This document shows positions 10,974 through 60,950 of a DNA stretch of 64,000 nt, in pieces. Below the pieces are notes generated by a model. The model was not told the DNA's origin, searched no databases, and saw nothing but the letters and a program-made list of their open reading frames with translations. The stretch's first letter is position 1, and each line of letters begins with the position of its first letter. The translations under genes were made by a program, and so were the position numbers. The DNA lies in the sequence record OR296290.1; one strand, 5' to 3'. The DNA comes from Escherichia phage SDYTW1-F1-2-2_3.

Positions 10974-11077
10974 AACTGCCTCCTATTTGATTTGGCGCAC
11001 CGTGTAGGACTCCAACCTACAACCCATTTCTTAGAAGGAAATTGCTCTCTGCAATTGAGCTAACGGCGCAGAATTAT

Positions 11078-17396: not shown

Positions 17397-18155
17397 TTAA
17401 AGAGCGGTAAATCTGTCAGTGTGCTTTCTCACACTACGCAACTGTAAGCCGTTGTTTCGCTTTTCACTGAAGCGGTGATTTGCCTAGTGAGTACGCTCAT
17501 TATGGACCATGATGTTTTCGCTGTCAACCGCTTTTTTAATCTTTTTCGTCGTTCCCGCTATTGGGAGGATATATCAACCAGCTTTATTTGATTGAAGATT
17601 AAGCGGTGAGGCTTAACTCATGATTCACATTGTTAAAGAGCGTTTAGCCTTTTATAGTGTCTGCTAATCACTGCATCATTAAAGGCTTACTTATTCATTA
17701 ACGGGGCGCCTAAGCCCGAACTAATCGCCGCACTGTGTGCCACCTTTCCCGCGATACGTTGATTTGGGAACTAGTTAACGTTGTTTTGTTAACTTGTGGT
17801 TAGTATGAACTACCTTAACCACGTTTGCAACCTCTTTTTTATCATCTTCTTTTATTCTTTTCCCTTATCTCGCGTGAGTCTATGCGAAAGGGCAAGATGA
17901 TAAGTTTTTAAAGAGCGGGATGCTTTAAGTCATCGCTGACTATGCTCACTATATATCAGGCTATTTTCGGTGTCAATACTCTTTTTAAGAATATTTTCAC
18001 TTTCTAGCCTGATTTTTAAAGAGCGGGGCAATTTCTTGCCTTGTATGTTTTTCATCGTACCCGATGAATTGAAGTATACGCCAACCAGTGAGTAATGCAA
18101 TAGGGTAGGGCAAATTATTTTAAACTTTTTCACTATAGGAAGATAAAAGAGCGGG
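17397..18155 (+). repeat. five dispersed direct repeats of TTAAAGAGCGG(G) in a non-coding region
   Basis: Copies at about 17397, 17633, 17905, 18013 and 18144; inverted copy CCCGCTCTC at about 16608. Confidence 0.6.
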
Positions 18156-18254: not shown

Positions 18255-18284
18255 AGAAAAGAAAAAAGCCTCATAGTGAGGCTT
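18255..18284 (-). terminator. rho-independent terminator (minus strand)
   Basis: AGCCTCA-TAG-TGAGGCT hairpin; on minus strand followed by TTTTTTCTTTT. Confidence 0.6.
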
Positions 18285-19095: not shown

Positions 19096-19340
19096 TTAGG
19101 CAAATCACAATCAAGAAGACCAGCAAGCGACAAATCACCGTCAATGTAGATCGACTTGAAATCATCACGGGTAATTTCAAAATTAGCAAAGGCTAACCAA
19201 TCCTTAAGAGGCTGAAATTCCATCCTGCAAAAAGTGATAACAGGCAAGATTATCTGACCGTCAAGTGTATTAAACATGATAGAGCTTCCACCAACAAAAC
19301 AAGAAAAACCGTTAGATAATTTAACTTCTTTAATAGCCAT
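19089..19340 (-). CDS. hypothetical protein
   Basis: 83-aa track ORF. Confidence 0.4.
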   Translation of the reverse strand: MAIKEVKLSNGFSCFVGGSSIMFNTLDGQIILPVITFCRMEFQPLKDWLAFANFEITRDDFKSIYIDGDLSLAGLLDCDLPKW

Positions 19341-19366
19341 TTTTTACACTCCCAAAAATAGATTAT

Positions 19367-19858
19367 TTACTTACTGGCCTTGATGCAGTTGGCTAGATTA
19401 ACGTGAACTGTATAAACAGCATTATCAGTGTTATTGTAAACCGTGGTGGCAAGTATTGATTCATTCATCGGGCCATAACTGACCAGATTCGTGACAGCTT
19501 TCGCATGGCTGTAACGTTGTACAGTGCCATACGTCACCATATCCGCATCATTATCAGTGCGCTTAAGTACCAGATCATTGTTAGGCTGATTGTCCAGTGT
19601 TTTGGTACTAACGACCAGACCATTACGAGAAACGTTACTAAATTTAACTTTTAAAACTACTTGATTAGTGTCACTATCCGCACCATTGCAAATCATCCAA
19701 CCCTTACTAACAGAATTAGCGAAGACACTAGCGGCATCAGTTGCAGGGGCAGGACTAGCAACAGCCTTATCAGAAAGAGATGTGACCAGTGCACTAACAC
19801 CGATAGCTGCAACCAGTGCATAGCTTGCCAGATTTACTACCTGCATTACCTTAGCCAT
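19367..19858 (-). CDS. secreted protein with Sec-type signal peptide (first gene of leftward block)
   Basis: MAKVMQVVNLASYALVAAIGVSALVTSLSDKAVA then mature domain; GAGGGT SD. Confidence 0.5.
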   Translation of the reverse strand: MAKVMQVVNLASYALVAAIGVSALVTSLSDKAVASPAPATDAASVFANSVSKGWMICNGADSDTNQVVLKVKFSNVSRNGLVVSTKTLDNQPNNDLVLKRTDNDADMVTYGTVQRYSHAKAVTNLVSYGPMNESILATTVYNNTDNAVYTVHVNLANCIKASK

Positions 19859-20163
19859 TTGTTAACCCTCGTTAATATGTATTTAGTTTTTATGTTTCAC
19901 AAGATAGCACATATTTCTACTTCATACGTAGGGTCATTGCTCAGTTGACCACTTCACTGACTCGATAGTGTCCCAGCTTTCACCAGTCAATCGCAGAGTC
20001 CTTATCTTTAAACATTCTCCACTACTTAGGACGATTATCCTTCATGGAGCTTACTACCATCTAGCTACTTTGCATCACTGCTTCGCTTCGATGAATACAA
20101 TTTACTACTTCTTAATAAAGAAAGCAAGTCCTACGGGTAAAATATTTCTACTATCTCTATAGG

Positions 20164-20570
20164 ACGGGGAACATACAACCGCAGAACAGACCACGGGGAA
20201 ACATAGCAAGATAGTGCGGTAATAATATACCACTTAAATAATTGTATAACTCAAACATCAAAGACCATTCGCTACGCTCATGCACGCTGAAAAAGAAAGT
20301 AATAAAAGAAATAATAACATACATCAATCATTATCCACTTAATTAATACATACATCATTATTGCACTCATAATCATCACTATTGAAACTATTTACATTCA
20401 AACTATGGGGAACGTGGGCTATTACTTATGGGTATTATATCGCCTTAAACTATTGGTACAGTGAGGGACTAGCCTTTCTCTCACTCAGTAAAGGGGAACT
20501 AAATAAACGGGTAGGTAATGAATAGGATGGTATACACGGGGAAAGAATAACGGGGAGTAGGCACGGGGAA
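20164..20570 (+). repeat. ACGGGGAA-type G-rich repeats flanking an AT-rich core with a DnaA-box-like TTATCCACT
   Basis: Copies at about 20164, 20193, 20406, 20492, 20536, 20550 and 20563; TTATCCACT at about 20331. Confidence 0.55.
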
Positions 20571-20765
20571 AGGTTGGAACGTTGATAGGGATGTAAAGGC
20601 ATTGCCAATAACCATTTTTTATTTGAGGACTCCCCCTTTTTAACAATTCGCCGCGGGGTGCCTAGCCCCACTCGGTCAAATCAGAATTTTAAACAGATAT
20701 ATACATCTTTATTTTTTATAAATCTGTATTTTAAACTCTTATATATAAGGTTAAGAGAGAACTTA

Positions 20766-20927
20766 ATGAATCTAATTAAAGTATTTAGACGGATGAAGTG
20801 TAAGCACAATTACTATCTTCTTCGTAAAGCTTACGGGGATGAAAGAATACATGGTCTCTACCTATCAACATGGAAGTGTAAGGAATGTGGTAAGTTGAGA
20901 TTCAGTACATGGGTGGATAGGCCTTAA
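20766..20927 (+). CDS. small zinc-ribbon-like protein
   Basis: Track ORF trimmed to ATG 20766; MKCKH...WKCKECGK Cys pairs. Confidence 0.35.
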   Translation: MNLIKVFRRMKCKHNYYLLRKAYGDERIHGLYLSTWKCKECGKLRFSTWVDRP

Positions 20928-20936
20928 CGTGACATG

Positions 20937-21020
20937 GCCTTTATGACATGAGGGTGCCTTTATGAAGTCCCCTTTACATCAGAGATTATGGGTAGGCCTT
21001 TAGATGATAGTGCCTTTATG
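20937..21020 (+). repeat. four direct repeats of GCCTTTATG upstream of the structural genes
   Basis: Copies at about 20937, 20956, 20996 (variant GCCTTTAGATG) and 21012. Confidence 0.5.
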
Positions 21021-21055
21021 GGTAAAACCCCTCCCTTTTCAGAGGAGATATAAAA

Positions 21056-21328
21056 ATGATTCTAGACTTTTTATCAGAGTTGATTCCTTACTTCCGCACT
21101 GAAAAATGTGCATTTAAAGTTGAAGAAGTTGGGGGCACTGAAGTAATAACTTGTTTGGGTAGATTAGTAGACCTAGACGATGATGAAGATTTTGATGTTA
21201 CAATAGACCTGAGTTCATTGGGCTGGTTGTACATGAGATGCTTTGTAACCTACAAGGCTGAGACTTATAAAGACTATCGTTATAGTGATAACACTGACAC
21301 TGACACTGAAGGAGAGAATGATGAATAA
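21056..21328 (+). CDS. acidic hypothetical protein
   Basis: 90 aa, Asp/Glu-rich C-terminus; ATG with GGAG SD. Confidence 0.45.
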   Translation: MILDFLSELIPYFRTEKCAFKVEEVGGTEVITCLGRLVDLDDDEDFDVTIDLSSLGWLYMRCFVTYKAETYKDYRYSDNTDTDTEGENDE

Positions 21329-22033: not shown

Positions 22034-22507
22034 ATGTTTGGAGAAAACGGAGAACTCACACCTGCACAGGTAGCTGAGATTACAGGAAGATTACCCGGAG
22101 TAACGGAAGAACTTGAAGGCCGTGGTATGAACCCAAGCAATGGGAAGTTTCAAAAGGGAAATAAATTCGGACGACCCAGAGGTAGTAGAGGTAAACTGAC
22201 ACAATTAATGTTGGACCGTGTTGCTGCAAGTCATTTGTCTCCTGATGAAGTGTTAATTCAAATTTACGAAGATCCTAATATTCCACCTGATCTTAGATTC
22301 AAGGCTGCATCAAAAGTTGCAGATCTGGTATATCCTAAGGCGGCCTCTGTTGAAGTTAAGATTGAGGAAGAGAATGTAATTAACGAAGAATCATTGAATG
22401 CACAAATCAAGGACTTCTTGACTGGAGCACTTGGTATCGATGTTATGCCTCCAGAAGAAGACAACTCTGAGGACGCTGAAAAGGGGGAGGAAGCGGACGA
22501 GAGTTAA
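22034..22507 (+). CDS. terminase small subunit (putative)
   Basis: 157 aa directly upstream of large terminase; basic GNKFGRPRGSRG DNA-binding-like segment; acidic C-terminus. Confidence 0.4.
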   Translation: MFGENGELTPAQVAEITGRLPGVTEELEGRGMNPSNGKFQKGNKFGRPRGSRGKLTQLMLDRVAASHLSPDEVLIQIYEDPNIPPDLRFKAASKVADLVYPKAASVEVKIEEENVINEESLNAQIKDFLTGALGIDVMPPEEDNSEDAEKGEEADES

Positions 22508-22668: not shown

Positions 22669-24210
22669 ATGTCATTAGATAAACAAATTTATGAAGCTCT
22701 AACTGGTAACAATCTTAGTGTAGAGGAAAAGAAAGCACTATTGAATATGTTGAAAGAGCGTGACCAATGGAGGAAGTATAATAGGATTTTGTCTTTCAAG
22801 GCGTATGACTTCCAAAAGAAATTTTATGCAGCAGGATTGAAGCATCGCTTTAGATTCTTGTGTGCAGCGAACCGTGTTGGTAAATCTTATAGCGAGGCAT
22901 ACGAGTTTGCTTGTCATGTCACAGGTCGCTACCCAACTTGGTGGACAGGATATAAATTTAAAAGACCTATCTTAGCATGGGCAGTTGGTATTACAGGGGA
23001 TTCCACAAGGAAAGTATTGCAAAAGGAATTGTTTGGTACACCTATCGGAAAGGATACAAACTTATTAGGGACAGGTGTCATTCCTCGTGATGCTATCGTC
23101 ATTGATACGATAGAACGAGATGGTAACAAACTTCAAATCGTACAAATCAAACATCAAAATGAGAGAGGAGAGTTTGACGGTTTAAGTACATTAGAATTCC
23201 GTTCAACCCAACAGGGTGAACACACATTGATGGGTGCAACAGTTGACTACATTTGGTTAGACGAAGAAGACCCATACGAGTCTATGGCTATATTCGCACA
23301 GTGCGTCACACGTACACTCACAACTAAAGGTCTAGTTACAATTACAGCTACACCAGAGAACGGTTTAACTGAACTGGTAGATAAATTTATGAAAGGTGAA
23401 GGGGATGAGAACACAGGTTCTCTATATTTCCAGAATGCTTCTTGGTGGGATGCTCATGCAGACCTAGGTGGACACATCACTGACCAAGATATAAAAGATA
23501 TGACTGAAGGTATTCCAGCGTGGCAGTTAGAGATGCGTTCAAAAGGTATGCCATTGTTAGGAAGTGGTTTGATTTATGATGTATCGGATGACACAATTAA
23601 ATGTGAACCATTCGAAATTCCTGATACGTGGAAACGTGTCTGTGCAATTGATATTGGTATTGATCACCCAACTGCTGCTGTTTGGACAGCTTACGACGCA
23701 AACACGGATACTATCTATGTTTACGACTCATATAAAGAAGGTGGCTTTACTCCAGTGTATCATGCTCCAGCTATTAATGGTCGTGGTCAGTGGATTCCTG
23801 TCATCCTACCGCATGATGCGGACAATACTGAGAAAGGTAGTGGCTCATCTGTTGCTCAATTCTATAAGAATGCAGGAGTTAACGTACAGAGTGAGACCTT
23901 CTACAACAAAATTGGAATGGATGGTAAAAAGAACTTCTTTGTAGAACCGGGAATCACAGATATCCGAGAAAGAATGATGAGTGGACGCTTTAAAGTCTTT
24001 AACACAGCCGCTAACGCTAAGCTATTCGAAGAGAAAGCTAGATATCACCGTAAGGTTGGTAAGATTATTAAAGAACATGATGACTTAATGGATGCAATGC
24101 GCTATTCAGCTTGCTCTGTTACACATCGTGGTCGCTCTAAGCATGATGTTAGCTACGGAAGCGCTTCTTTGTATGAGGCAAACGTAAGCAGATGGAATCA
24201 GAGCTACTAA
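22669..24210 (+). CDS. terminase large subunit
   Basis: 513 aa; Walker-A-like AANRVGKSY; size and position before portal; strong GGAGGAAG SD. Confidence 0.8.
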   Translation: MSLDKQIYEALTGNNLSVEEKKALLNMLKERDQWRKYNRILSFKAYDFQKKFYAAGLKHRFRFLCAANRVGKSYSEAYEFACHVTGRYPTWWTGYKFKRPILAWAVGITGDSTRKVLQKELFGTPIGKDTNLLGTGVIPRDAIVIDTIERDGNKLQIVQIKHQNERGEFDGLSTLEFRSTQQGEHTLMGATVDYIWLDEEDPYESMAIFAQCVTRTLTTKGLVTITATPENGLTELVDKFMKGEGDENTGSLYFQNASWWDAHADLGGHITDQDIKDMTEGIPAWQLEMRSKGMPLLGSGLIYDVSDDTIKCEPFEIPDTWKRVCAIDIGIDHPTAAVWTAYDANTDTIYVYDSYKEGGFTPVYHAPAINGRGQWIPVILPHDADNTEKGSGSSVAQFYKNAGVNVQSETFYNKIGMDGKKNFFVEPGITDIRERMMSGRFKVFNTAANAKLFEEKARYHRKVGKIIKEHDDLMDAMRYSACSVTHRGRSKHDVSYGSASLYEANVSRWNQSY

Positions 24211-59105: not shown

Positions 59106-60950
59106 TTAGTGGGTTTGCATCCAATTCAATCCGATTTTGCAATCAGAGGCTAGCTCGCAGTGCATATTTAGGTATTCTCCAGCCTTCTTAACACATTCCT
59201 CAGCGATGGTCTTCATTTTATGAACATCATTACGGTTAACAGACCACTGAGCTTCATCATGGTAGTCAATTACTTTGTTACCTCTGATATTCTGTTGATC
59301 TACCCACTTGTTTGTGAAGAGGATAGAATACTTCATGACAATAGCACCCGCACTCTGAAGTAAAGTATTTAGTGCTTTATGAACCATAACTTTACCAGTG
59401 GCATCCCGTCTCATGGTCAACTTACGACCGTCCACACCTTCAAGAGTGCCTGTTTCTGCACGGGCTTGTACTCTCTCCAAGACAATTGGGATACAAGGGC
59501 ATTCTGCTAAGAAACGTTCTCTGAGAATTTCACCCTCTTGAGCGCCTCCTCCAACAATCTCTCCAATCTTAGCTGCGCCTGCCCCATATAGAAATCCATA
59601 GATAAAAGTTTTTGCATTATCTCTAGTTGGTAGGCCAGCTAGTTTCTGGTTGTGGGAATGGATATCACCTGAGAGAAGAATCTCTCGATAAGTATAAGCA
59701 GCCTCTAAGCCTTTCTCAGCCCTCAGATACTTAATTTTATCATTCTCTGCTTTGGCTTCTTCCATCATGTCAAGGCACTCTTTCACAAGATAGTGCACTA
59801 ACATACGCAACTCTAATCCAGAACCATCATACCCTAAGAATACTTCTTTACCAGCGGGTATGTAATATTTGTAAGCACCTACAGGTTTATCTTTCTTCCC
59901 CGGCTTACCTTTCTCATAAATTACGTTAGTACCTTTTCGTATATAACAACCATCAGGAACAACGTTAGTAATAACGAAAGGACGAGAGTGATCATCATCT
60001 GAGTTATAGTCAGACTCAAACAAACTGCGACACTCGTGACCAAACAAACCACGGGAGGGAATATTAACCACGATACGATGTTTGAATCGAAAAGTCGGCG
60101 TAGCGCAGCTGTTAGCTTCTGCCGAAAGTTTACCATCTTCGCGTTCCTTTGCTATGAGTCCACTGATAAGACCTAGCCTGTGAGCCGCTACAACGCGTCT
60201 CTTAAGCAAACTCCCGACACTCCCTAGCTCACCCCCTAACCCTTCTTCAAGAGTCTCCTCGAGGTTTGTAGGAGCTGTAGGCCACTTGTTTGAGGTAGCT
60301 AGTGCTATCTTAATCTCATCAAAAGTGATAGGTCTACGTCGGTTAGGGTTTAAACCTAAACCAAATACATAAGCCTTCATATAGTTCTTAGTCTTAAACC
60401 TAAAATGCTTCTCTAAGAACTTCCTAATATCAGCGTCAACCATCTCGGCTGTCTGCTTCTGTTTAGCATTACCTCGCATCCAAGCTGAATACCATGCTTG
60501 GTATGTTCCATACTTTCGCATATCTTTCTTGATTTCAAAAGTATTCCAAGGCTTCTTAGATACGTTAAACTCTGGAGGAAGAAAGCCCTCATCCATAAGG
60601 GCTTCTTTAACTCGTGCATCTTTCGATGGGTCAAAGTCCACGTATTCAACACAGGTGAATGCTCCACCAATGTCTTCTCTCTTAAGACCAACTCTATCAC
60701 AATAGGCTTGAGGCCACTTCTGTAAAGCTCCAGACTTCTTAAATGGCTTCATATAAGTAGAGCCATCTAATCTCATCTTAGGTAAGAGAGGAATCAATTC
60801 TTTGTCAATATTAACAATAATCTCTTTAAGGAGGTGAACATACCACCGAGCATTTCTTCGGTTGAAACTCACTCCGTGCTTCGCTTGCTTAGAGATTATA
60901 TCAGCGACAGTCATCTCTGTCAAAAATGGGAGAGCGTCCGGGTTGCTCAC
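59106..60950 (-). CDS. DNA polymerase, family A (polymerase domain only); GTG start
   Basis: 614 aa; motif A (DGSGLELRM), motif B (RDNAKTFIYGFLYGAG) and motif C (VIDYHDEAQ); GTG start with AAAGGAG SD; no 3'-5' exonuclease motifs seen. Confidence 0.75.
   Translation of the reverse strand: MSNPDALPFLTEMTVADIISKQAKHGVSFNRRNARWYVHLLKEIIVNIDKELIPLLPKMRLDGSTYMKPFKKSGALQKWPQAYCDRVGLKREDIGGAFTCVEYVDFDPSKDARVKEALMDEGFLPPEFNVSKKPWNTFEIKKDMRKYGTYQAWYSAWMRGNAKQKQTAEMVDADIRKFLEKHFRFKTKNYMKAYVFGLGLNPNRRRPITFDEIKIALATSNKWPTAPTNLEETLEEGLGGELGSVGSLLKRRVVAAHRLGLISGLIAKEREDGKLSAEANSCATPTFRFKHRIVVNIPSRGLFGHECRSLFESDYNSDDDHSRPFVITNVVPDGCYIRKGTNVIYEKGKPGKKDKPVGAYKYYIPAGKEVFLGYDGSGLELRMLVHYLVKECLDMMEEAKAENDKIKYLRAEKGLEAAYTYREILLSGDIHSHNQKLAGLPTRDNAKTFIYGFLYGAGAAKIGEIVGGGAQEGEILRERFLAECPCIPIVLERVQARAETGTLEGVDGRKLTMRRDATGKVMVHKALNTLLQSAGAIVMKYSILFTNKWVDQQNIRGNKVIDYHDEAQWSVNRNDVHKMKTIAEECVKKAGEYLNMHCELASDCKIGLNWMQTH

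Follow-up and report, generated by a model that had tools for sequence, protein, structure and literature searches.

A putative genome-end junction in a phiEco32-like phage, with a candidate terminase recognition array and a structured leader RNA

The window analysed here is a stretch of 64,000 nucleotides from Escherichia phage SDYTW1-F1-2-2_3 (OR296290.1), which by its sequence is a phiEco32-like phage (Kuravirus) with 85-91% identity to kuraviruses. A 907-bp non-coding stretch (19859-20765) separates two divergent gene blocks. To its left, the first (rightmost) gene of the leftward early block (19367..19858, minus strand) encodes a 163-aa protein homologous to the C-terminal 162 aa of the phiEco32 gp128 family; it matched phrog_21410 over its full length and phrog_36409 at positions 129-290 of 290. 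To its right, the rightward block opens with small genes and the terminase, beginning with a 53-aa homologue of gene 1 (20766..20927, plus strand; phrog_7696). The large terminase, TerL (22669-24210, plus strand), is 99% identical to phiEco32 TerL. An ORF at 22034..22507 (plus strand) is 100% identical to YF01 gp3, which the authors of the YF01 study assigned as the small terminase (TerS) because its profile resembles that of PaP3 TerS. For this ORF, sequence searches of Pfam and PDB gave no significant match (best in Pfam, DUF5681, E = 0.061), and on the strength of the published profile match it is regarded here as a candidate TerS.

The sequence-only reading of this DNA had described a gap of about 900 bp between the leftward early genes and the rightward block, and comparison with related phages bore this out. 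Each of the five mechanical ORFs in 20105-20671 is interrupted in relatives and no ORF across the region stays open in them, which rules out coding as the cause of the conservation described below. No tRNA was found in the region.

Alignment showed that 20471-20663 is a full-length homologue of the 193-bp direct terminal repeats (DTRs) of phiEco32, SU10 and YF01. Bases 1-193 and 77362-77554 of the phiEco32 record both align to this segment, with the start of that record (AGCCTTTCTC...) matching 20471 and its end matching 20663. The homologous stretch is exactly 193 bp long in 14 kuraviruses (the window phage and 13 others), and the inferred DTR length is 205 bp in EP335 and Bas89. The DTR is annotated in the YF01 record, and the IME267 record begins on the same base as 20471. 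The DTR was mapped in phiEco32 by restriction analysis, primer walking and sub-cloning, in SU10 by read drop-off, and in YF01 from whole-genome nanopore reads. The segment in the window has the length of the 192-193 bp class and is placed with the rightmost early gene on one side and gene 1, followed by the terminase genes, on the other. It shares with the DTRs of phiEco32, SU10, YF01 and Paul this placement relative to the last early gene and gene 1, homology from end to end, the length of 193 bp, the same boundaries, and the inner repeat CCxTTTTTTA-N10-CCCCCTTTTTA. It differs from them in being one collapsed copy (20471..20663, plus strand) in a permuted assembly: a second copy was searched for in the window and none was found, so the ends of this phage are placed by homology. 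Because 20471-20663 aligns end to end with a mapped 193-bp DTR, the 907-bp stretch is read as the genome-end (concatemer) junction, in which both chromosome ends meet in an assembly drawn as circularly permuted. The earlier suggestion that this could be a packaging or terminal-repeat region is in keeping with the homology to an experimentally mapped DTR.

Both boundaries of the DTR fall in the hexamer CTAGCC. By alignment, the left boundary (20469..20474, plus strand) would be cut between 20470 and 20471 and the right boundary (20662-20667, plus strand) between 20663 and 20664, placing both cuts in T/AGCC (the slash marks the cut), exactly 193 bp apart. Either T/AGCC or T/AGGC was found at both boundaries in nearly all of the 16 phages compared, the exceptions being CTGGCC at the left boundary in MN03 and EP335 and CCCAGCC at the right boundary in 172-1.

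With the ends placed in this way, the virion DNA would have a unique non-coding right end (20133-20470, by homology to mapped genomes) and a unique left-end leader into gene 1 (20664..20765, plus strand, by alignment). The left-end leader contains a conserved AGCCCCACTCGGTCAAATCAGA block, a 42-bp insertion (20687-20728) that is missing in phiEco32, and TTTTAAACTCTTATATATAAGG before gene 1; the SU10 supplement places a potential sigma-70 promoter in this stretch. The most conserved part of the DTR is CCATTTTTTA-N10-CCCCCTTTTTA (20612..20642, plus strand), which was described in SU10 as an inner repeat with a T tract of varying length; the YF01 paper refers to it as a conserved region, 130-170. 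In PJNS034 and pSal-SNUABM-01, CCCCCTTTT likewise follows short repeat arrays. The secondary structure of the DTR strand was indistinguishable from that of shuffled sequences (z = +0.55).

The stretch also contains a set of G-rich direct repeats. The sequence ACGGGGAA occurs exactly four times in the 64-kb window, at 20164, 20193, 20536 and 20563, all within this stretch, against 0.82 occurrences expected. The broader pattern ACGGG(G/T)A has 12 sites in the window on both strands; seven of the 12 lie within 20133-20569 (437 nt), all on the plus strand (Poisson P(≥7) = 8e-17), and the largest cluster within 450 nt in 200 first-order Markov simulations was three. At least seven G-rich repeats in two groups had been noticed from the sequence alone. 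The counts agree with that description and add a copy at 20133 that had been overlooked, and the further variants tGGGGAA at 20405 and aGGGGAA at 20491 fill out the two groups.

All of the copies are on the plus strand. The right-end flank contains R1 (ACGGGTA, 20133), R2 (ACGGGGAA, 20164) and R3 (ACGGGGAA, 20193), spaced 31 bp and 29 bp apart, and R4 (aTGGGGAA, 20405), which lies 65 bp outside the left cut. Degenerate copies, GTGGGCTA at 20413 and ATGGGTAT at 20428, fall in the segment of about 60 bp that adjoins the DTR (within 20405..20470) and differs among phages. Inside the DTR are R5 (aAGGGGAA, 20491), R6 (ACGGGTA, 20507), R7 (ACGGGGAA, 20536), R8 (ACGGGGAg, 20550) and R9 (ACGGGGAA, 20563), all 20-100 bp inside the left cut, with degenerate copies at 20524 and about 20576. 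The array has five clear copies spaced 12-17 bp apart in the DTR and a further four in the right-end flank, in one strand orientation. The repeats had been described as two groups flanking an AT-rich core; repeats and core are both present, but the second group belongs to the DTR itself. The distance from R1-R3 to the closest cut site, about 270-340 bp, is large for a pac element. The left-end flank (20664-20765) contains no repeat units, and the nearest one, an extra ACGGGGA, is inside gene 1 at 20833. A conserved inverted repeat, CCGCAG-N6-CCACGG, is located at 20179-20196. Another inverted repeat, of 7 bp, between R8 and a C5 tract was rejected, as it is lost in Bas92, Bas94, EP335 and Bas89. 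Tandem Repeats Finder reported A-rich micro-repeats only, the G-rich units being dispersed rather than tandem, and a G-quadruplex was judged unlikely from the spacing of the G runs on inspection of the sequence.

Conservation of the repeats in related phages, whose absence the sequence-only reading had named as counting against it, was found. Conservation of the R1-R3 cores across 15 relatives was 0.85-0.91 and that of the repeat cores in the DTR was 0.84-0.96; for repeat cores as a class the value was 0.90, versus 0.75 for the remaining non-coding DNA. The block common to all kuraviruses starts at R1. The units are kept while the spacers have diverged in three genera, Kuravirus, Nieuwekanaalvirus (EP335 and Bas89) and Suseptimavirus (IME267), across which TerL identity is 93-99%; EP335 and Bas89 retain CACGGGG units despite different spacers and a 12-bp insertion. 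Conservation does not single out the repeats, since 20215-20243, 20331-20412 and 20625-20645 are at least equally conserved. The distant relatives PJNS034, pSal-SNUABM-01 and LAh_9 do not share ACGGGG. Relatives with about 60% TerL identity, whose genome ends are unmapped, contain other direct-repeat units in three to four copies upstream of CCCCCTTTT, namely CACACGG in PJNS034 and ACGTGTGR in pSal-SNUABM-01; that these arrays are analogous to the ACGGGG array is only suggestive, and no recognisable array was found in LAh_9. The degenerate copies at 20413, 20428, 20524 and 20576, and the variation of copy number between genera, would be expected if the repeats had no function and were relics of local duplication or of compositional bias in a terminal repeat. 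This explanation is very improbable in view of the extreme clustering, the single strand orientation, and the conservation of cores above spacers in three genera.

Between R3 and R4 the DNA is very AT-rich: 20220-20400 has 26.5% GC compared with a window mean of 42.1%, which places it in the lowest 0.45% of all 181-nt windows. Parts of this core are strongly conserved (20215-20243, 20283-20297 and 20331-20412). The core had been noted earlier together with a site matching eight of the nine positions of the DnaA box, and both are present in the sequence. The DnaA-box-like site, TTATCCACT (20331..20339, plus strand), lies within a conserved CCACTTAATTAAT element, a second copy of which is at 20229-20243 (direct repeat family D4). 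The window contains 31 sites that match the DnaA consensus TTATNCACA with no more than one mismatch, this one among them, and two perfect DnaA boxes are located elsewhere in it. In TTATCCACT the mismatch falls at a specified position of the consensus, the TTAT part is not conserved, and most relatives read TCATCCACT or CTTTCCACT at this site. As the site is one of 31 and is not conserved, it gives no support to an origin.

A replication origin is nevertheless an explanation to be weighed. The G-rich repeats would act as iterons or as R-loop-promoting clusters, the AT-rich core would unwind, and DnaA or a phage initiator would bind; in a variant, a T7-style origin primed by transcription would consist of a promoter followed by AT-rich DNA. 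A core of 26.5% GC flanked by direct repeats fits this layout, as do the promoter-like sites within the core, and direct repeats adjoin an AT-rich segment in oriC, plasmid and lambda-type origins. Secondary origins of T7 adjoin its terminal repeats. The cumulative GC skew is lowest near 20 kb, but this turn coincides with the switch in coding strand and so is not independent evidence for an origin. The repeats have cores of 7-8 bp at irregular spacings of 12-17 and 29-31 bp, compared with the phased 17-22-bp iterons of origins, and half of them, the five of R5-R9, fall inside the mapped terminal repeat, which sets the array apart from those of the known origins. An AT-rich element is present, though it is not specific to origins. 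A conserved DnaA box, phased iterons of about 17-22 bp and an adjoining initiator gene are all absent, no initiator-like family having been found among the neighbouring genes checked. Taken together, these results make an origin unlikely, and the earlier origin and DnaA reading is set aside: its site is unconserved and its repeats lack the helical phasing of iterons. The best reading of the AT-rich core is a set of conserved leftward promoter-like elements rather than an unwinding element with a DnaA box.

Three leftward promoter-like sequences were identified. The early promoter is a predicted sigma-70 promoter, TTGCTT-17-TAAATT (20127-20099, minus strand; PWM score 9.8), with a start near 20092; the AT-rich core lies upstream of this rightmost early promoter. 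It is kept as TTGTCT-17-TAAATT in phage 172-1, where the downstream DNA differs, and its register to the leader RNA described below is the same as that of the consensus promoter TTGACA-16-TATAGT in the 7-11-like phage pSal-SNUABM-01. Early promoters for the leftward block had been expected in this region, and the conservation of 20127-20099 in relatives with different downstream cargo agrees with that expectation. The site with the best score in the region (PWM 11.9) is within the core at 20224..20254 (minus strand) and has an extended -10, TGgTATATT at 20232-20224, with a weak -35, TTGAGT, and a 19-nt spacer; TGGTATATT is kept in 14 of the 16 aligned phages and the other two read TGGAATATT. 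A second extended -10-like site, TGcAATAAT, is at 20357-20365 (minus strand). Transcription from these two sites would be predicted to start at about 20217 and about 20350. For the motif of the phiEco32 sigma factor (gp36), TAATGTATA, a single site was found in the region when one mismatch was allowed, TAATGAATA at 20516, and the count over the whole window equals the expectation.

The proximity of R1-R3 to these promoters raises the possibility that the repeats control early transcription, as operator-like sites for a phage or host factor at the right-end promoters or, in a variant, as C-rich RNA signals (UUCCCCGU on the leftward transcript), for example for Rho loading or avoidance. Measured from the predicted start at 20092, R1-R3 are centred at about -44, -75 and -104, with roughly three helical turns between neighbouring copies. 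A transcript from the extended -10 site at 20224-20254 would include R1-R3, and the hairpin CCGUGG-N6-CUGCGG pairs better on the minus-strand RNA, via G-U pairs. Against this, the R1-R3 block of phiEco32 is about 125 bp further from a different promoter, and because distance and promoter both differ there is no fixed R1-R3 geometry. R5-R9 are at most 175 bp from the chromosome end and upstream of all leftward promoter candidates, and so would be absent from the early transcripts of infecting linear DNA. The block also moves with the DTR and not with the exchangeable promoter and gene modules. Early control is an unlikely role for the array.

Position, orientation and conservation suggest instead that the ACGGG(G/T)A array is probably a terminase recognition array: short repeats in one orientation lie at or near the presumed cut sites. 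TerS, the candidate product of the ORF at 22034-22507 and the proposed reader of the array, would assemble on it in the replicated concatemer and position TerL for a cut or nick at the two T/AGCC sites; the DTR would be duplicated, and packaging would proceed rightward from the left end. Packaging in that direction would make the right end, with the early genes, the last to be packaged and the first to be ejected. On the transcript from the promoter at 20127-20099, the first early gene would be preceded in this phage by the leader RNA of about 200 nt. The whole explanation, in which the junction, the array as a guide for the terminase and the promoter reading of the core are taken together, is given a probability of roughly 0.55.

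Sites of this general kind are familiar from other phages. In the P1 pac hexamers, SPP1 pacL/pacR and the lambda cosB R sites, several short direct repeats for TerS lie on one side of the cut or on both, and the intervening DNA is often bent or AT-rich. Those phages differ in being headful or cohesive-end packagers, while here two cuts 193 bp apart would yield a direct repeat. TerS is typically an oligomer with several HTH motifs, and SPP1 TerS contacts several points flanking the cut. Phage tf and the LUZ24 group have a related large terminase, the LUZ24-group TerL being about 39% identical to that of the window, and a DTR of similar length, about 185 bp. In tf, the two DTR boundaries share the core GATATCcc, which was put forward as the terminase site, as T/AGCC is here. 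The core sequences are different, and so are the ends: those of tf are one blunt and one with a 4-nt 3' overhang, whereas the SU10 reads point to blunt ends. No ACGGGG-type array has been reported in tf.

The T7 junction resembles the region in having a short exact DTR that is processed from concatemers, a TerS site with a TerL cut, and a pause element. PacB in the T7 concatemer is the site recognised by TerS (gp18), and PacC is where TerL cuts. The two junctions share no sequence similarity, the early genes here are at the right end, and a host RNA polymerase with a phage sigma factor is used. The short-repeat arrays SRL and SRR of T7 reportedly adjoin its terminal repeat, with the early promoters next to them; the array here differs in lying inside the DTR and in the right-end flank only, not on both outer sides.

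The T7 comparison suggests a different use of the repeats, in which junction processing is coupled to transcription. Rightward RNA polymerase would pause or form R-loops at the non-template G clusters and the T6 and C5T5 tracts, marking the junction for cutting and duplication of the repeat. A class II pause/terminator is known from the T7 concatemer junction, the G runs here all lie on the plus strand and precede CCATTTTTTA and CCCCCTTTTTA, and the SU10 reads are heterogeneous in length at exactly these T tracts. However, no convincing rightward promoter was found upstream, with the best plus-strand scores in 19859-20470 being about 9 or less. The DTR strand has no significant structure (z = +0.55, as above), its G-run spacing is unlike that of a canonical G-quadruplex, and kuraviruses rely on host RNA polymerase and a phage sigma factor rather than a T7-type polymerase. 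We consider this coupling improbable.

The right-end repeats might also act in the virion or during ejection, by binding portal, ejection or end-protecting proteins or by pacing the entry of the first few hundred bp before transcription. The right end most likely enters the cell first because the early genes and their promoters are located there, and the non-coding right end plus the DTR amount to about 570 bp, a position like that of the short-repeat region at the leading end of T7. The DTR is also present at the left end, so its repeat copies are not end-specific, and to our knowledge there is no precedent for sequence-specific end binding in this group. A role at the virion end has a similarly low probability, and a terminase recognition array is the preferred reading.

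The leftward transcript from the early promoter would begin with a structured leader RNA of about 200 nt (19892..20095, minus strand), identified from covariation and homologues in the rightmost early transcript. It lies directly downstream of the early sigma-70 promoter, in an operon that ends in an intrinsic terminator at 18284-18266. Its parts are a GNRA-capped hairpin, a long-range GUAGC/GCUAU closing helix and at least three internal helices. Homologues were found in kuraviruses, 7-11-like phage(s), Autographiviridae and the microvirus NC29, always in non-coding DNA and in sense with the flanking genes. Compensatory changes were present in 12 of 24 pairs and then in 16 of 26 pairs, and 95.5% of cells were consistent with pairing, compared with 32-43% when the partners were slid. 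Rfam 15 gave no match at E ≤1 in 19300-21300 or in four divergent homologous loci. A host origin was also looked for, and no match was found in 5,426 E. coli genomes or, with a gapped pattern, in a scan of GTDB genomes. In the Autographiviridae the leader is followed by a perfect rrn-type boxA, CACTGCTCTTTAACAA; the kuravirus copies have no boxA.

From its place in the operon, the leader RNA may act on transcription elongation or termination. Like HK022 put and the boxA of rrn leaders, it is a cis-encoded RNA just after an early promoter, put being directly behind PL. It is unlike put, which is about 70 nt with two stem-loops, in its length of about 200 nt and its at least five helices, and the two are not similar in sequence. 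According to the authors of the 7-11 study, the antitermination mechanism remains to be defined; if the leader acts in this way, it would supply the mechanism missing in that study. Combining both parts of the analysis gives a joint reading that we offer tentatively and with rather less than an even chance of being right. The leader would be an undescribed, horizontally mobile phage RNA family heading early or major transcripts, possibly a cis-acting put-like or Nus/boxA-linked processive antiterminator, and the ACGGGG array with its paired T/AGCC sites would be the first defined recognition-and-cut code for the phiEco32/LUZ24-clade terminase.

Of the features discussed, the DTR itself is already known, the repeat array is a modest addition and the leader RNA is the most novel item. 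Published accounts of kuravirus DTRs describe the length, the T-tract repeat and the conserved 130-170 region. The ACGGGG array and the shared T/AGCC are not in the published DTR accounts examined, and the primary phiEco32 papers (Savalia 2008, Pavlova 2012) may describe repeats or right-end promoters. Placement of the DTR fixes the true ends and the gene order of the window phage, to the extent that the homology holds, and would account for permuted assemblies in the phiEco32-like group. It also removes a tempting but unsupported origin and DnaA annotation. The ACGGGG array with two T/AGCC cuts 193 bp apart is a testable candidate for a packaging signal. No pac-type site for the phiEco32/LUZ24 terminase clade is defined in the published accounts examined, and having one would help in engineering transducing particles or contained therapeutic phages. 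The leader RNA is a by-product of this analysis that may matter more: it is of riboswitch size, supported by covariation, found across unrelated phage families and absent from Rfam. With early promoters immediately before it, and in some phages an rrn-type boxA beside it, it is a candidate answer to how terminators are read through in long early operons.

The non-coding region at 19859-20765 and its flanks were 85-91% identical to those of the phiEco32 group of E. coli podophages (Kuravirus, Gordonclarkvirinae), with pEC-N1203-2Af.1, MN03, XT18, XT32, and XT73 as the closest relatives. Genes were directed leftward to the left of 19859 and rightward to the right of 20766, and the large terminase, TerL (22669-24210), was 99% identical to that of phiEco32. 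In phiEco32, SU10, and YF01, early and middle genes make up the right arm and are transcribed toward the left, starting at the right end, and the packaging and structural genes are on the left arm, so the sequence-only reading was correct in labeling these a leftward early block and a rightward structural block. The first early gene (19367-19858, minus strand) encoded a shortened gp128-family protein, equivalent to only the C-terminal 162 aa of this 290-aa phiEco32 family. The leftward block also contained a tRNA-Arg (TCT) at 10993-11069 (minus strand).

The region is very probably (roughly 90%) the junction of the chromosome ends, with a direct terminal repeat (DTR) at 20471-20663. The linear phiEco32 record begins with AGCCTTTCTCTCACTC and finishes with ...GCGGCGAGCGGCT, and in the multiple alignment its two ends fell at 20471 and 20663, an interval of exactly 193 bp. 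SU10 shows a sharp read drop-off at the same boundaries, and whole-genome nanopore reads of YF01 have the repeat at both ends, as its record annotates. The linear record of IME267, from a different genus, begins at the same base. The homologous interval was exactly 193 bp in 14 kuraviruses, many substitutions notwithstanding. There was a single copy in the window, which therefore derives from a circularly permuted assembly in which the repeat has been collapsed. The suggestion of a packaging or terminal-repeat region thus agreed with the phiEco32 record ends and the repeat mapped in SU10 and YF01.

Window-wide counts, GC content, and ORF comparison bore out the G-rich repeats, the AT-rich core, the DnaA-like sequence, and the non-coding status described from the sequence alone. 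All four copies of ACGGGGAA in the 64 kb were within the region (0.82 expected). Seven of the 12 ACGGG[GT]A sites on both strands of the window were at 20133-20569, all on the plus strand; first-order Markov simulations gave at most 3 copies per 450 nt, and the Poisson probability of at least seven was 8e-17. The variants aTGGGGAA (20405) and aAGGGGAA (20491) and a few degenerate copies completed the series. The segment 20220-20400 was 26.5% GC, among the lowest 0.45% of 181-nt windows. No mechanical ORF across the region remained open in 15 relatives, and the DNA is therefore non-coding. A further ACGGGGA at 20833-20839 (plus strand), in gene 1 and 170 bp to the right of the DTR, was kept in phiEco32 and could be a coding coincidence or an extra array member.

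The picture of two repeat groups around an AT-rich core required revision: the second group is inside the DTR, and the first group and the core form the unique non-coding right end. Three repeats (R1-R3; 20133-20200, plus strand), spaced 31 and 29 bp apart, were accompanied by a small conserved inverted repeat. R1 was the exact left edge of the block common to all kuraviruses, and to its left promoter-plus-gene modules were swapped between phages. Three very conserved AT-rich blocks (20215-20412) included two left-facing extended -10-like sites, TGgTATATT and TGcAATAAT, and two conserved copies of CCACTTAAwTAAT 105 bp apart in the AT-rich core (20229-20243 and 20334-20346). PJNS034 (L018 2929 and 3362) and pSal-SNUABM-01 (L020 about 150, 375, and 675) also had units like yCACTTA in their non-coding ends. 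After R4 (20405, plus strand) came about 60 bp, variable among phages, up to 20470. Within the DTR, R5-R9 were spaced 12-17 bp apart and followed by CCATTTTTTA-N10-CCCCCTTTTTA and then a GC-rich 20 bp. A conserved left-end leader (20664-20765) preceded the start of gene 1 (20766, plus strand) and carried a 42-bp insertion relative to phiEco32. The insertion (20687-20728), absent from phiEco32, MN03, YF01, and others and common to 172-1, NJ01, O18-011, and EC.W2-6, duplicated ATTTTAAAC and had an inverted repeat, ACAGATATATA/TATAAATCTGT. Between gene 1 and the ORF at 21056 were 4-5 copies of a GCCTTTATG-type unit (20928-21050), including GGCCTTTATGA, GTGCCTTTATGA, GGCCTTTAGA, and GTGCCTTTATGG; the same series was present in phiEco32 (L003 about 420-470 and 630-680), and PJNS034 had TGGCATGA five times at the equivalent position (L018 4190-4324). 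These units may serve the packaging-gene cluster as operators or promoters.

The repeat cores had a mean identity to the window of 0.90 in 15 relatives, compared to 0.75 at other non-coding positions, and the CACGGGG units were kept in EP335 and Bas89 (Nieuwekanaalvirus), where the spacers differed and 12 bp were inserted. Other blocks of the region were conserved at least as well, so the repeats were not singled out by conservation alone. PJNS034 and the 7-11-like pSal-SNUABM-01, with TerL proteins about 60% identical, each had a short array built from another unit (CACACGG and ACGTGTGR, respectively) upstream of a CCCCCTTTT element. Because these arrays have 3-4 copies and the genome ends are unmapped, a common layout with lineage-specific sites is no more than suggested.

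Both DTR boundaries carried T|AGCC, as CTAGCC at 20469 and 20662, 193 bp apart, and this was the case in nearly all of 16 phages. Phage tf belongs to the LUZ24 group, in which TerL is about 39% identical to that of the window; a core sequence shared by its two DTR boundaries has been proposed as the terminase site. The T7 small terminase (TerS) recognizes PacB in the concatemer, and cutting by the large subunit takes place at PacC; SPP1 TerS binds at several points that flank the cut, and TerS of the PaP3 type forms a nonamer of HTH motifs. On the basis of the paired T|AGCC sites and these precedents, the oriented ACGGGG array is read as a putative assembly site for TerS, for which the candidate gene is the ORF at 22034-22507, identical to YF01 gp3. 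The array would direct TerL to both T|AGCC sites. Judged from position, orientation, and conservation, this mechanism is put forward tentatively, at somewhat under even odds; the combined statement of DTR junction and terminase array is slightly favored. That the 12-17-bp spacing within the DTR is close to the per-subunit DNA arc wrapped on a nonamer is only a thought.

The sequence-only reading had also considered a replication origin with a DnaA-like box, and this was not supported. The proposed box, TTATCCACT at 20331, was one of 31 sites in the window with no more than one mismatch, two perfect boxes were elsewhere, and its mismatch was at a specified consensus position; most relatives had TCATCCACT or CTTTCCACT. 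The repeats were not phased as in an iteron origin, no initiator gene was nearby, and the GC-skew minimum coincided with the coding-strand switch. An origin has nothing specific in its favor and is judged unlikely, a transcription-primed one less clearly so. The 31 TTATCCACA-like sites exceeded expectation (17.7 +/- 4.3; 0 of 100 shuffles reached 31) and were spread over the genome, so the excess probably reflects composition or codon usage, not DnaA biology.

The expectation of early promoters for the leftward block was supported by a predicted one, TTGCTT-17-TAAATT (20127-20099, minus strand), with a sigma-70 weight matrix score of 9.8; it was kept as TTGTCT-17-TAAATT in 172-1, with unrelated DNA downstream. 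It lies 7 nt upstream of AUCGAAGCGAAGCAGUGAUGCAAAGUAGCU...; in Salmonella phage pSal-SNUABM-01 that sequence comes after a consensus TTGACA-16-TATAGT, and in Bas89 after a promoter of the phiEco32 type. Elsewhere on the minus strand, an intrinsic terminator (18266-18284; AAGCCTCACTATGAGGCTT and a T run) directly preceded near-consensus sigma-70 promoters TTGACA-17-TATAGT (17948-17976) and TTGACA-17-CATAAT (17499-17527), matching the early promoter cluster and terminator of SU10. The top matrix score in the window, 19.8, belonged to a perfect consensus sigma-70 promoter, TTGACA-17-TATAAT with TGA before the -10 (60895-60923, minus strand).

A structured leader RNA (19892-20095, minus strand) sits where phiEco32 encodes the N-terminal half of gp128. 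Searches by blastn and pattern scans found this element of ~200 nt, in each case without annotation and in the same sense as the flanking genes, in kuraviruses, one 7-11-like phage, several metagenomic contigs, Autographiviridae of Erwinia, Klebsiella, Ralstonia, and Pseudomonas, and the C-D intergenic region of microvirus NC29. Homologues were located in the compared sequences L021 (1490-1716), L022 (1301-1527), L023 (1499-1725), L024 (1493-1719), and L020 (1-93), and also in L014, L034-L039, L045, L046, and L049. No match was found in Rfam 15, in 5,426 E. coli genomes, or in a GTDB pattern scan. RNAalifold predicted at least five helices, with compensatory changes in 12 of 24 pairs (16 of 26 when more divergent members were added), including a GNRA-capped hairpin and a long-range GUAGC/GCUAC closing helix. 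Pairing was possible in 95.5% of alignment cells, compared to 32-43% with partners slid, and none of 500 shuffles reached the observed covariation score. In Autographiviridae an rrn-type boxA followed within about 10-20 nt, perfect (CACTGCTCTTTAACAA) in four IMG/VR contigs; boxA was missing from the kuravirus copies. The operon headed by the leader RNA ends at the intrinsic terminator 18284-18266, followed by consensus early promoters, and the antitermination strategy of 7-11, according to the authors of that study, "remains to be defined". It is thus a reasonable hypothesis that the RNA may act in cis on elongation or antitermination. In neither size nor architecture does it fit the put family of HK022 antiterminator RNAs.

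The DTR is already known for the group, and the window supplies one more member. Neither the array of ACGGGG units nor the pairing of T|AGCC at the boundaries was found described in the papers covered, the two primary phiEco32 papers not among them; the array adds modestly to a familiar class, that of repeated sites located at a packaging junction. The most novel element within 19859-20765 is the leader RNA, which has strong covariation support, occurs in unrelated phage families, and is outside the Rfam families.
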